Shown here: positions 281 to 18,308 of the stretch, in pieces | Layout: each line of letters starts with the position of its first letter | How positions within the stretch are numbered: position 1 is the stretch's first letter | Made by a program: the position numbers and the translations under genes | Source of the DNA: Promethearchaeota archaeon | GTDB lineage: Archaea; Asgardarchaeota; Lokiarchaeia; Sigyniarchaeales; SOKP01 | Direction of reading: 5' to 3' | DNA: 64,000 nt | Assembly (NCBI GenBank): GCA_048939995.1 | Contig: JBHLOY010000002.1 | Span: forward strand, 128,001 to 192,000 | Notes under the pieces: model-generated | The model's database searches: none | Told to the model about the DNA's origin: nothing | Seen by the model: only the letters and a program-made list of their open reading frames with translations

Positions 281-419
281 TATTCATAGACCTCTCATCT
301 TTTCTAAGATGATATTACCCTCTCTATATAAAAGAAAATTTTACAAATTTTTTTCTTTATATACACTTGCCATAAATCTTCCTTAACAATTCTATATTCA
401 TAAAATAAGGTTAAAAATA

Positions 420-1496
420 ATGCAAGAAATTGAAATTATTAAAAAATTATCAACGAGAATTGAAGATCGTCCTGAAGAGATTTTAAAATATATCCATATT
501 GGAATTAGCATTCCTGTATTGCCCCAATTCCATAAATATATTAAAAGTGATATTGAGGAATATAATGCTAAATCTATCCTTCTTGAAAACCAAATTGAAG
601 CGAAAGAATTCGGAAAACAAACCGATAATGTGATTGGTCATACTCTTATATACGATGATGGCGGAGAAGTATTATTTTTTGGATTTTTTAATATATATGA
701 TCATGATCCTAAGAAAATAGAACTTTTAGCAGATGAAATCATTAATTATGCTAAAGACAATGACTTTAGTATTATCAGGGGGCCAATTAATGTACCTACT
801 GTAATCTTTGGATGGGGATTTATGGTTGAGGGGAGTAGAAAAGACTTATTCATCGGATCTCCAATTAATCCACCAATCTATCAGCAAATCTTTATGGAAA
901 AAGGCTTCACTATCAAATTTCAAGAGGATAGGTACTGGATGCCTGCCTTAAAAATGGATCCCCATAATAATCCTGCTCTAGTCAAGAAAGGAGTAAATTT
1001 TGCGGAATATGAATTTAGCAATCCAGGAAGAGATGGGTTGATGGCAATTAAGGAAGAATATATTGAGCTTCACGCGACCTACATGCCGAATTCGGCTCGT
1101 ATTACTCCCAGAGCATCAAAGAATTTTGATAATATTGTAGATTTCACCCATACCTTTGGTGCAAACTGGATGATGTGGATTGTTCGCCATAAAGAATCTG
1201 GTCAGATGGCAGGGTGTGGATATATTATCCCTGATATTTTTCACTTAAATCGTAAAGGTGAATTAGATTCAGTAAGTTTTCATGATTGGGTTGTACATCC
1301 TGATCATCGCCGTAAGTATTTGTCAATGCTTATGTATGGAGAGACCTCTCTTCTTGCGAAAGACCGAAGAACACCTCACTATATTAATCGTGGATCATGG
1401 CCCGTAGGAGCGGATAATGTGGCAAATGCGAACGCTGCCATGAAGATGGGTGGAAAGAAAGATAGAAGCCATATAATTCTGGAAAAAACAGTCTAA
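420..1496 (+). CDS. GNAT-fold N-acyltransferase-like protein (YghO-like, two GNAT lobes)
   Basis: LFFGFF, IRGPIN..GWGF, N-P-x-Y and C-terminal VHPDHRRKYLS acetyl-CoA-binding-like segments. Confidence 0.6.
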   Translation: MQEIEIIKKLSTRIEDRPEEILKYIHIGISIPVLPQFHKYIKSDIEEYNAKSILLENQIEAKEFGKQTDNVIGHTLIYDDGGEVLFFGFFNIYDHDPKKIELLADEIINYAKDNDFSIIRGPINVPTVIFGWGFMVEGSRKDLFIGSPINPPIYQQIFMEKGFTIKFQEDRYWMPALKMDPHNNPALVKKGVNFAEYEFSNPGRDGLMAIKEEYIELHATYMPNSARITPRASKNFDNIVDFTHTFGANWMMWIVRHKESGQMAGCGYIIPDIFHLNRKGELDSVSFHDWVVHPDHRRKYLSMLMYGETSLLAKDRRTPHYINRGSWPVGADNVANANAAMKMGGKKDRSHIILEKTV

Positions 1497-1509
1497 AAAT
1501 TATTATTTT

Positions 1510-1869
1510 TTAATATCTATTATTTTTTTCTTTGAGTTTTCTATAAATATTATCTACTTTTAATTCAAGTTCAGTTAGAGTTTTCTTTTTTTCATTTAGT
1601 TCCTTCTCTAATTTGGCGCATATTTTTACATTTTTCCTTTGGTGTTCTAAATTTGCATAAAATGGGAAAAAATTAATGAGTTTATCAATAGTATTCTCTC
1701 CAAGTTTTAAAATGGCCTTCCTAAGTACGATATCTTCTATTTTTCCTGTTTTTAATTCTTTTATTAGCGATTTTAGTTTAAGTAGTTCATCGCCATCTAG
1801 CACGATTGAAATTAAATTATCTCGCAAGGTCTTATTATTATCAAAATCTTTTCCTTTAGCTGAGGTCAT
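1510..1869 (-). CDS. Hypothetical protein with C-terminal coiled coil; last gene of the membrane operon
   Basis: 119-aa ORF with AGGT SD, 7 nt after the apparent ancestral stop of the upstream gene. Confidence 0.6.
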   Translation of the reverse strand: MTSAKGKDFDNNKTLRDNLISIVLDGDELLKLKSLIKELKTGKIEDIVLRKAILKLGENTIDKLINFFPFYANLEHQRKNVKICAKLEKELNEKKKTLTELELKVDNIYRKLKEKNNRY

Positions 1870-1876
1870 TATTTAC

Positions 1877-2447
1877 CTACTCTCCTCTAACTCGAGATAT
1901 ACTTTTATAAAAATGTACTCGAATCTTTTTTTTTCTGGACTACTTGGAATGAAAAGGGAAGGGTAGGTTCGACAGTAGAAAGGCTTCTTAGAAATTGATT
2001 AATATTCGCATGTACAGTTTCAGGAACTACTTCAATCCTGAAAATCTTTAATCCAACAGTTAGAAGGTCAACCTTGTTCGTATAGAATATAATTTTAGGG
2101 TCATTAATAATGGTCCAAAATACAATATCTTTGAATGGATTTATAGATTGAAATTGAAATAATCCTTTTAGATGAAAGAATGACTCCCGAAATATTAATG
2201 AAAATATACTAATAAGAAGAATTGCAGATCCTAAAGCTATATAGACATTGTTAATAAGTAAATAGATGCATACTGAAAATAAAATTCCTAATATTACTAA
2301 AAATATTAGCTTAAATATTGAAAAGATGCTATTAGTATCATTGTAAGAAGGATGGATATCCCAAATCATCTTAAAATCTTCATTTGTGTCTTTTCTATCA
2401 GAATTTTGCTCACTTCCATTAAGAAAGTTTGTATAAAGATTAGTTAT
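1877..2447 (-). pseudogene. 2-TM membrane protein with cytoplasmic domain, frameshifted or internally deleted at an A9 tract; probable ATA start at 2447
   Basis: Frame is open from ATA 2447 right after GGAG and the upstream stop; main frame stops at 1905 just after T9 (1926-1934); a second frame reads KIRVHFYKSISRVRGE* to 1877, abutting the next gene. Confidence 0.5.
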
Positions 2448-2448
2448 T

Positions 2449-15985: not shown

Positions 15986-16223
15986 ATTATCTCAGAAATT
16001 TGAAATAACCCCCTTAATGAAAATTAAATGCAGAGAGGTTTATAATGATTTCATAGTTTATTTTTATACTAATCAAATAAAAAAAATCGCCCAGAATGAA
16101 GATTGGGACTTATATGAATATGGATCAAAGATTAATAAATTCTTAACAATAACTTATTTTGAACCACTTGAACTTCAAAATTTTTTTCCTTTAAATAGTT
16201 TAGTTAGAGGAGTGGGTATATGA
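15948..16223 (+). pseudogene. 3' gene fragment lacking its own start, in the +1 frame after the A-tract
   Basis: Frame is open from 15948 (KKLAHPELSQKFEITPLMKIKC...); its last codons run through the promoter of the next gene. Confidence 0.4.
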
Positions 16224-16600
16224 TTACTCATGATGCAATTTCAGAAAAGGGGAAGCTTAAATCAGTAGTTTGTAGAATTTGCTATAATAATACTGGAAAG
16301 AAACCTCAAATCGTAAAACTAGGGACAGAATTTCAAGTTATTTGTAATGAGTGTACCGAAAGATTTACACCTGAAGAAAGAGATTTAATCTATAATATGT
16401 TTACTGCATTTGGTGGTTATTTTGGAAAATTAAAGGATGAATCCTCATATAAGGTTATCACTCGGTTAATGAAAGAATACAATTTAGAAGGGGCTGATCT
16501 GAAGTTGAGTGCAATTGATGTTAGGGTGCTTCATGAAGCATTACTTTATGGAATTGCTCCAAGACATTTAATTCAAGGGATCAAAATACTCCAAGAATGA
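16220..16600 (+). CDS. Zn-finger protein (CxxC..CxxC)
   Basis: CRIC, CNEC; own promoter motif at 16179-16197. Confidence 0.65.
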   Translation: MITHDAISEKGKLKSVVCRICYNNTGKKPQIVKLGTEFQVICNECTERFTPEERDLIYNMFTAFGGYFGKLKDESSYKVITRLMKEYNLEGADLKLSAIDVRVLHEALLYGIAPRHLIQGIKILQE

Positions 16601-16764
16601 TTTCAAGATATATTTATTTTATTTAATGTGATTTAAGATTAAAAAATTAATTCCATTTAAAAATGGATCTTAGATTATAATCCTTATATATTCACTTAAC
16701 TTATTTATAAATGAGAAATCCATTTAATTAAAAGTATTATCTAAAATTAATTTAAGGAAGAGAA

Positions 16765-17448
16765 ATGACAATCACCTTTCATTTTTGGTTTAGTTCTTTT
16801 GCATATTTCTTACCATTAGGAATGTATAGCGCTTATATGATTGCATTTAGTGTCTTTCTGATTATCGCTAGCCAAGAGAAGGAAAGAACCACTATTTTTA
16901 AAAATCTTTTAAAATCTGCGGCAATTGTTAATTTAATCAGCATTACACTGCTGTATTTCTTTCCTATCGGTTCTACCGCTTATAGTCCAACTGAACAGGA
17001 ATTAATGTTAATGTATCTTCTTACAGGTATATTACCATCCTTACTAACTTATATTCCAAAAATATATTCTTTTGGTATAGTATTTTTTATTTACGGCTAT
17101 AAAAATAGAAGTTTAATTAAAGATTATCTTAAGTACACAGGTATCTTTTGGCTTATCTTTACTATTTGGGCTTCTATTACTCTTTTCTCGCCATTTGCAA
17201 GTTTTTCTCAGCTAGTCTATATATTAGATTACATTTATAATCTTCCTAGTTTCTATCTTTATTCAATTCTTTTTCAGATTTTTGGAATTGGAGGTATTTT
17301 TAATTCATTAGCAGTCATTTTTCTATTGATTCATGCATTTGTTAATAGTGATTCTTCATTAAAAATAGCAGGATTTATTTATTTCATTGGGAATGCAACA
17401 ATTGGGCTTAGTCAAATCGCGCTATATATTCAAATGATAATATATTAA
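16765..17448 (+). CDS. Multi-pass membrane protein (about 6 TM)
   Basis: Hydrophobicity pattern. Confidence 0.7.
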   Translation: MTITFHFWFSSFAYFLPLGMYSAYMIAFSVFLIIASQEKERTTIFKNLLKSAAIVNLISITLLYFFPIGSTAYSPTEQELMLMYLLTGILPSLLTYIPKIYSFGIVFFIYGYKNRSLIKDYLKYTGIFWLIFTIWASITLFSPFASFSQLVYILDYIYNLPSFYLYSILFQIFGIGGIFNSLAVIFLLIHAFVNSDSSLKIAGFIYFIGNATIGLSQIALYIQMIIY

Positions 17449-17455
17449 GAAATAA

Positions 17456-18199
17456 TTATAAGTAACAAGAAATATTTGAAACCTCATCAATGATCTTTAT
17501 TGTAGGGTAGTTTTCATCCTCTCTTTGGCTTAAATTAACAATCCTCATCTTTGAAGTATGGAAAGTATTGTTAAAAATATAAAAAGTAGAAGTATAATCT
17601 TGCTTGATTCTTTCAAAGCGGATTTCCATACTAGTTTTCAAATTAGAAAAGAGATCTCTGTTATTGGAACATAAATAATTTACCTTTTGATTCAACTTAT
17701 CTATTAAGATATAACATTGCAATCTTATATCATAATAGATATGAAATTTATCCCTATAATGCTTCCAATCAAGGAGAAAGTTAATTAATTCTGTGTTAAA
17801 TATCTCATTAACCATTTTATCTCCATATTTCATTTTTTCAATAGAATAACTTATAAGATCATTGATATTATATCGTTTTCTTTCACCTGAAATTATAATG
17901 GGTATGTCAAAATAATCCTCATTTCTTATAGCTATTTTTATTATCATTTCACCTTTCTTGGGATATTTTTCATGAAGAATTTTAATAGCTAATCTTCGCA
18001 CCTCAGAACTGGGATCTTCTAGAACTAGTTTTTTTAGAGTAGGAAATAGATCATATTTTCCAAAATCCATTATTGAAATTCTTTTAAGCGATCTTAATCG
18101 CGCTTTATCGCTATTAATCTTTAGGGATTTTAGTAAGGATTCTAATTGCCAATTTTTTTCTAAGAAGTTAATTTTATTTGATTTAGTTTTTGTTTTCAC
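17456..18199 (-). CDS. HEAT-repeat-containing protein
   Basis: LKKLVLEDPSSEVRRLAIKIL HEAT-like repeat; island-type promoter at 18221-18236. Confidence 0.6.
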   Translation of the reverse strand: MKTKTKSNKINFLEKNWQLESLLKSLKINSDKARLRSLKRISIMDFGKYDLFPTLKKLVLEDPSSEVRRLAIKILHEKYPKKGEMIIKIAIRNEDYFDIPIIISGERKRYNINDLISYSIEKMKYGDKMVNEIFNTELINFLLDWKHYRDKFHIYYDIRLQCYILIDKLNQKVNYLCSNNRDLFSNLKTSMEIRFERIKQDYTSTFYIFNNTFHTSKMRIVNLSQREDENYPTIKIIDEVSNISCYL

Positions 18200-18308
18200 A
18201 GCATTAAGATGGATCAGAGCTATTTAAAAGAAAAATATAGAATTATAGAGATATTTAAATATTCAGAATCATACATTTTTTCTATAATTACGCATCCCGT
18301 TTACAAAA

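Follow-up and report, generated by a model that had tools for sequence, protein, structure and literature searches.

Whether paralogues of the archaeal initiation factor transcription factor B (TFB) are true alternative sigma factors, each with a promoter sequence of its own, is a long-standing question. In the Sulfolobales, the DNA-damage regulon governed by TFB3 and Orc1-2 (Ups pili, Ced import) combines a TFB paralogue with a gene set that includes a HerA/VirB4-type ATPase and membrane proteins, and with a T-rich, C-ended promoter element (PMC6101591; PMC6061795). In Sulfolobus acidocaldarius, the full-length paralogue TFB2 drives a dedicated cell-cycle gene set (bioRxiv 10.64898/2026.09.06.749720), and in haloarchaea multiple TFBs and TATA-binding proteins (TBPs) act as paralogous general factors that confer promoter selectivity (PMC7289017). 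The published cases found involve either similar TFB-recognition elements (BREs), as for TFB2, or a co-activator lacking a helix-turn-helix (HTH), as for TFB3, whereas in the system described here three helix types appear to pair with three BRE types. The stretch under study (the window) comprises 64,000 nucleotides from a Promethearchaeota archaeon of the Lokiarchaeia (contig JBHLOY010000002.1, here C17, positions 128001-192000; parent genome 3.75 Mb), whose relatives are recorded mostly as Promethearchaeota or Promethearchaeia. An 18.5-kb block of the window holds a divergent TFB paralogue, and most transcription units of this block are preceded by a T-tract element directly upstream of the TATA box. 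The present data suggest, with a probability of about 0.7, that the paralogue reads this element, and the genes so marked are probably switched on as one unit, in the manner of a bacterial alternative-sigma regulon.

The initial annotation had listed 12 T-tract sites, each of which was found at its claimed coordinates and strand, and the distance of 29-31 nt between TATA start and start codon that it gave for five genes was likewise verified. Two exact forms of the motif match the window 7 and 4 times, versus 1.48 ± 1.11 and 0.26 ± 0.50 times in shuffled sequence (0 of 100 shuffles as high), and all 11 matches fall within 325-18236, ten of them being listed sites and one (2588-2601) lying inside a gene. 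The regular expression of the initial annotation has 183 matches in the whole genome, or about 1 per 20 kb, versus 12 in the 20 kb around the block. A position weight matrix (PWM) derived from other genomes only, the window genome being excluded from its training as from that of the expectation-maximization (EM) search, returns 16 matches of at least 12 bits in the block versus 1.18 expected; these include two intergenic sites missing from the initial list, at 12741(-), the conserved promoter of 10356-12680, and at 7059(+). Unseeded EM on 400 upstream regions of 24 related clusters recovers TTTTTcTTTAaATA, and the same de novo search on non-cluster promoters of the window genome yielded nothing comparable. 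Near-complete clusters carry 14-25 PWM matches, whereas control stretches from these genomes have 0-3 per 20 kb, and the held-out loci give the same picture. With positions counted from the first base of the TATA box, TTTT stands at -6 to -3 before 140 of 160 cluster TTTAWATA boxes versus 7 of 306 others in the window genome, and T occupies -6 to -3 in 99-100% of cluster sites. As to a dispersed regulon in the window genome, just 19 of 2558 other upstream regions reach the score of 12, and these share no obvious theme. The element is specific to the cluster and conserved across dozens of genomes.

In position, the element behaves as part of the core promoter: as the initial annotation had claimed, it occupies the BRE slot of genuine-looking promoters, abutting the TATA box at fixed spacing. 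It is proposed to be an alternative BRE of the form A(-8) T(-7..-3) Y(-2) C(-1), followed by TTTAWATA, a pyrimidine-purine (YR) step at +12/+13 and an initiator at +28/+29. In the leadered promoters (n = 125) the YR initiator still lies at +28/+29 (0.66 at +29 versus about 0.2 elsewhere), with a second YR at +12/+13, and in gene families 2, 11, 17 and 24 the ATG is most often found exactly at +29; this spacing of TATA box and initiator corresponds to archaeal core-promoter geometry (PMC7289017). Genes that are first in an operon almost always carry the motif (22/22 for families 1 and 2; 17/17 for families 11, 16 and 19), and its count at the operon-internal families 4, 6 and 12 is zero. Because the sites have this geometry, with TATA box, initiator at +28/+29 and ATG often at +29, they are not terminators. 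That they might be T-rich terminators or AT-rich chance matches has in its favor a genome of about 69% AT with about 170 regular-expression matches outside the block, yet the divergent pairs, the fixed initiator, the ATG at +29, the conservation at orthologous positions and an enrichment of more than tenfold make this extremely improbable, and it was rejected on positional statistics, orthologous conservation and enrichment.

The open reading frame (ORF) of the paralogue encodes a complete TFB whose recognition helix is altered yet invariant. Its 415 residues contain both cyclin folds and a Zn ribbon in which C25, C28, C42 and C45 are invariant and the match to PF08271 is weak. A profile search with the paralogue matches TFIIB; the core of its AF2 model (pLDDT 81-94) is aligned by Foldseek to 1d3u_B, the Pyrococcus TFB, with a TM score of 0.75 over 202 columns and a root-mean-square deviation of 3.4. 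In the tree, the paralogues form a clade apart from the canonical TFBs, with support of 100/100 and long branches. The second cyclin domain of TFB is the part that contacts the BRE (PMC7289017; PMC4581349), and it is in the helix of this domain that MSTI[QH]xQ replaces the canonical TEVT[LV]R, with M279, S280, Q285 and V286 invariant in 29 homologues. Each of the seven canonical TFBs of the window genome has TEVT[LV]R in its second-cyclin-fold helix. A predicted complex of TBP and paralogue scored 0.01, gave no answer and was not used as evidence. The initial annotation had held that the TFB of the block reads a different BRE, and the altered helix, the element in the BRE slot and covariation between families favor this claim; the promoter of the TFB gene itself is of the purine type.

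Among the cluster promoters, only that of the paralogue has a purine- or A-rich BRE adjoining the TATA box; it stands back to back with a T-tract promoter. In the 24 of 37 loci that could be anchored, A occupies -3 in 95% and a purine -6 in 91%, and the T-tract motif occurs in only 1 of 25 loci. The paralogue gene appears to sit outside its own regulon. Since housekeeping BREs are invisible as a genome-wide average, this promoter is also the best internal control for a purine BRE. Within 14056-14200, ACTCC is conserved just past the TATA box, and conserved GATC- and CTTCT-containing stretches lie upstream, possibly as an operator for an inducing signal.

Comparison of sister families suggests that helix and element changed together. 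Promethearchaeum syntrophicum MK-D1 (G014), whose family, a sister group, also contains Ca. L. ossiferum, the second cultured member of the Lokiarchaeia, has a homologous cluster at 1.73-1.79 Mb without the T-tract element. In its cluster promoters the TATA box is instead preceded by T-N-Y-G-N-T, at 28-30 nt from the ATG, and the recognition helix of its paralogue DSAG12_02155 is ASTVY. This pattern has 11 of its 32 genome-wide matches in 57 kb, an enrichment that is partly circular because the pattern was derived from these very sites. Orthologous promoters in G013 and G011 have the same TNYGNY element, and the clusters of MK-D1, G013, G011 and Ca. L. ossiferum all combine TNYGNY 28-33 nt before the ATG with the helix ASTVY. 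In Ca. L. ossiferum, TNYGNY is present in 8 of 16 cluster promoters versus 0 of 67 flanking ones, counted with the MK-D1-derived pattern, which was slightly loosened once the upstream regions of this genome had been inspected. On its complete chromosome, 1.2 Mb separate the motif-bearing cluster from the paralogue (NEF87_003786, helix ASTVY), and on the closed chromosome of G060 the paralogue is found about 750 kb from a motif-bearing part of the cluster. Cluster genes also occur in two further families and another genus (L261, L262, L259-L260; G153, G005, G001), with pyrimidine-rich elements before the TATA box such as a T-tract plus CCC in G153, and more helix-element pairs can therefore be sampled.

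Alternatively, the T-tract could be bound by another protein with sequence specificity, for example winged-helix-like family 3 (9689-10267), which would then recruit a TFB, with the paralogue serving only as a co-activator as in the Orc1-2/TFB3 system of the Sulfolobales. Family 3 is conserved in both families and weakly HTH-like, the Orc1-2 element ANTTTC resembles AWTTTTC (PMC6061795), and the motif is kept in some metagenome-assembled genomes (MAGs) with no detected paralogue. However, the element fills the BRE slot with no spacer, exactly where the TFB helix must sit, whereas the position of the Sulfolobus element varies between 30 and 80 bp upstream and TFB3 has no HTH (PMC6101591), the HTH of the paralogue here being kept and invariant; moreover, family 3 itself stands behind a T-tract promoter and the TFB gene does not. 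A separate reader is thus rather unlikely. In another scenario, the T-tract would hold down promoter strength as an anti-BRE or DNA-shape element, or would suit one of the seven canonical TFBs, and the role of the paralogue would lie elsewhere. The existence of seven such factors and the fact that housekeeping BREs are on average not strongly purine-rich could favor this scenario, but one recognition helix is common to all seven, and the C at -1 together with the switch of the sister family to a G-containing element points to the reading of bases and not to stiffness alone, leaving the scenario with little likelihood.

Reading of the T-tract by the paralogue must itself be weighed against several observations. 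G110, G029 and G052, all fragmented MAGs, have motif-rich blocks or high motif counts and no detected paralogue. The covariation draws on two families with good sampling in addition to the canonical type, and a difference between families would be expected of any cluster protein; in G005 a T-tract-C-like element is paired with another helix, ATSCIT. The contrast with purine BREs is based on three promoters chosen by hand. Across the genome, canonical BREs are weak, so that the exclusion of housekeeping TFBs from the cluster promoters is at most presumptive. The three metabolic promoters that the initial annotation had quoted do exist, but a purine BRE is not visible as a genome-wide average: neither de novo motif search nor TATA-anchored averages of non-cluster promoters revealed a clear housekeeping BRE in this AT-rich genome. 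The predicted co-occurrence of motif and paralogue across 154 genomes, for which presence and absence counts were transcribed by hand, goes in the right direction but is blurred by fragmented MAGs and kinship; the median motif count per genome is 14 with the paralogue, 9 without it and 5 for the reversed control, kin not being independent. Fragmentation may explain the motif-bearing genomes without a paralogue, since many paralogue-negative MAGs keep other cluster genes.

Taken together, these observations allow the construction of a model for the regulon. Housekeeping TFB would transcribe the paralogue gene from its canonical purine-BRE promoter in response to some signal. The paralogue, consistent with its fold and with general TFB biology, would then join TBP on the TATA box and recruit RNA polymerase via its Zn ribbon. 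Its rewritten second-cyclin helix may read the T-tract, discriminating T at -3 and -6 from the A and purine of its own promoter. About 15-20 transcription units, arranged in cis or in trans to the factor, would thereby fire together, and in intact relatives the output would be a second recombination kit together with membrane and secreted proteins.

The initial annotation had regarded the block as an island; it is not specific to this genome but an 18.5-kb, deletion-reduced copy of a Promethearchaeia cluster conserved across the order. About 40 kb around the paralogue in 30 loci define a cluster of about 35 kb with conserved gene order and motif copies at orthologous positions. Its Pfam content comprises Hel308-like and Hef-like helicases, RadA, an XPG/FEN1 nuclease, an OB-fold RPA-like protein, a helix-hairpin-helix (HhH) protein, a small GTPase and a prenyltransferase-toroid protein; RadA, Hel308, Hef, FEN1 and RPA are second copies, and the neighbor of the GTPase in L. 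ossiferum is annotated as a roadblock protein, forming a roadblock/GTPase pair. Elsewhere the window genome encodes more distantly related RadA, FEN1, Hef and Hel308 homologues, and the cluster copies are absent or broken: the Hel308-like helicase lacks about 540 residues and family 25 everything past residue 179. Both deletions are real, since contigs of two other independent studies bridge both junctions with no differences, and an assembly artefact was ruled out as their cause on the same grounds. The window genome has thus lost the recombination core and kept factor and promoters intact. A long A-run at 15939-15977 ends the RadB-like ORF about 35 residues short of its relatives, either a true truncation or a sequencing slip. 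The features of the block are collected in Table 1.

Table 1. Features of the T-tract block, with coordinates in the window.
Feature	Coordinates	Strand	Remarks
T-tract promoter	325..340	-	52 nt before unconserved 74-aa ORF (56-280)
T-tract promoter of 420-1496	348..363	+	Initiator TAA at +28..30
358-aa protein	420..1496	+	Related to cluster-associated family 38; no Pfam match
Short family-21 gene	1510..1869	-	Cluster edge; 119 aa, equal length in G129
Family 25, N-terminal remnant	1905..2447	-	About 179 of 1240-1290 aa; membrane-anchored HerA/VirB4-fold protein, rest deleted
Operon of families 16, 15, 14	2449..5726	-	Family 16 HhH plus membrane; families 15 and 14 membrane proteins
T-tract promoter, family-16 operon	5750..5765	-	ATG at 31 nt; motif in 17/17 orthologues
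T-tract promoter, family-27/Hel308 operon	5783..5798	+	Divergent partner of the family-16 promoter
Hel308-like helicase pseudogene	6148..7042	+	Residues ~206-746 deleted at ~6731
Extra PWM site	7051..7066	+	A at -1; absent from initial annotation
T-tract promoter of family 10 (7229-7543)	7184..7199	+	
T-tract promoter of family 18 (7671-7886)	7616..7631	+	
G-variant promoter of 53-aa ORF (7990-8151)	8199..8214	-	ORF conserved in closest relatives
T-tract promoter of GNAT-like family 28 (8328-9554)	8264..8279	+	
Family 3, weakly winged-helix-like	9689..10267	-	Rival candidate reader; own T-tract promoter
T-tract promoter of family 3	10290..10305	-	ATG at 30 nt
Family 1	10356..12680	-	Hydrophobic N-terminus; prenyltransferase-type alpha-alpha toroid
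T-tract promoter of family 1	12734..12749	-	A at -1; 61 nt before ATG; motif in 22/22 orthologues; absent from initial annotation
Divergent TFB paralogue	12774..14021	-	Zn ribbon, two cyclin folds, ~120-aa C-terminal extension; profile, AlphaFold model, tree
Recognition helix of cyclin fold 2	13161..13196	-	Residues 276-287; alignment of homologues
Promoter of TFB paralogue	14056..14080	-	Purine-type BRE slot, TATA, conserved ACTCC; no T-tract
T-tract promoter, family-2/4/8 operon	14222..14237	+	ATG exactly +29; motif in 22/22 orthologues
Operon	14259..15985	+	M50-like peptidase, small membrane protein, RadB/KaiC-like ATPase
T-tract promoter of family 11 (16220-16600)	16182..16197	+	ATG at 30 nt
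T-tract promoter	18221..18236	-	Precedes family 22 in relatives; here 29 nt before non-cluster HEAT-like gene (17456-18199)
Family-29 homology	18315..18479	+	Right cluster edge

The HEAT-like gene at 17456-18199 is absent from other clusters, and G041:C6 has a distant homologue in the neighborhood of a lone TFB paralogue. By sequence appearance, the genes that flank the cluster encode a carbamate kinase and an ornithine aminotransferase-like protein at one end and an ornithine carbamoyltransferase-like protein at the opposite end (20657-21589; C17:125446-127717). Some genomes contain additional blocks of other genes with the same T-tract promoter; in G099 (C33 and C8; L232 and L233), 13 and 6 such promoters stand before non-cluster genes that include an XPF/ERCC4-like gene and repeated families, a possible extension of the regulon. 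A second partial cluster in G041:C7 holds a 508-aa ORF (L231:10191-11717) with a canonical-TFB-like start and a match to family 23, the cluster GTPase, which may be a fusion or a misassembly. Near 493 kb of G000:C11, a 427-aa protein (L275:949-2232) contains one TBP-like domain flanked by what appear to be Lrp/AsnC-type halves; a canonical TFB gene lies some 4 kb away.

The block might be an active mobile element, either a conjugative element or a provirus, with late promoters of its own: it is patchily distributed, its flanks vary, some genomes have additional partial copies, and one of its proteins has a HerA/VirB4 fold. However, 100 of the 134 genomes in the family contain relatives of the paralogue, usually as a single full-length copy; gene order is conserved, and in closed genomes the system is split across the chromosome. 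No integrase, relaxase or capsid appeared among the Pfam-scanned families (att sites were not searched), viral contigs contained no match and no relative of the paralogue, and there is no clear GC anomaly. An active element is accordingly improbable, and a domesticated mobile-element origin of the cluster is possible.

The output of the regulon is most plausibly an inducible state of DNA acquisition and recombination, at slightly less than even odds. DNA exchange by the cluster is put forward as a hypothesis from gene content only. The fold of family 25 matches HerA, TrwB and VirB4 (E 6e-9 to 1e-5), with a degenerate P-loop that has no Walker A GK[ST]; family 24 is of pilin-like size with two hydrophobic helices and showed no profile match to solved pilins. 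Comparison of families 25 and 3 with PDB sequences gave no useful match. As to a pore, the membrane families 14, 15 and 16, which family 22 resembles in being a membrane protein, gave no informative Pfam match, no profile comparison with CedA having been made. It is tentatively proposed, with less assurance than for the output state, that a sigma-like TFB of the Lokiarchaeia, whose BRE code is orthogonal and evolves from lineage to lineage, turns on a dedicated competence- or mating-like program (DNA transfer, a second recombination kit and a roadblock/GTPase module) in both cultured species.

A literature search for the cluster or the paralogue found no paper, most subscription papers lying beyond its reach. 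The three helix-BRE pairs make a direct swap experiment possible, and the presence of the system in MK-D1 (DSAG12_02155) and Ca. L. ossiferum (NEF87_003786) renders it testable with existing cultures and purified proteins. For relatives of the eukaryotic ancestor, the system is suggestive of a recombination state that can be induced, and its promoter and factor are candidates for an orthogonal pair in archaeal genetics. The window contributes a decaying copy of the cluster in which factor and promoters are still present.

The streptococcal ComX, a bacterial alternative sigma factor, unites one initiation factor, one private promoter and a recombination gene set. The contact of sigma region 4 with the -35 element parallels that of the second HTH of TFB with the BRE (PMC4581349), although the factor here is a TFB and not a member of the sigma-70 family, and competence is hypothetical here. 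Features in common with Ced/Ted DNA transfer (PMC9905601) are a protein of HerA/VirB4 fold, family 24 as a small membrane protein of two helices, and further membrane proteins of the multi-pass type; unlike that system, the cluster has no detectable homology to CedA1/TedC/VirB2, the P-loop of family 25 is degenerate and no CedA/VirB6 was identified. For the haloarchaeal factors a certain degree of specificity only is stated in the review (PMC7289017), whereas here a long-branch paralogue with a different helix resides in or serves one cluster. The TFB3 of the Sulfolobales is truncated, lacks the HTH and needs TFB1, whereas the present paralogue is full length; Orc1-2 recognizes the ANTTTC element at a variable distance ahead of the core promoter, whereas the T-tract is fused to the TATA box at fixed spacing. 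In S. acidocaldarius TFB2, finally, the BRE is similar with altered spacing and tfb2 targets itself, whereas in the Promethearchaeia the BRE sequence appears to have been replaced and the gene of the factor seems to stand outside the regulon that it would control.

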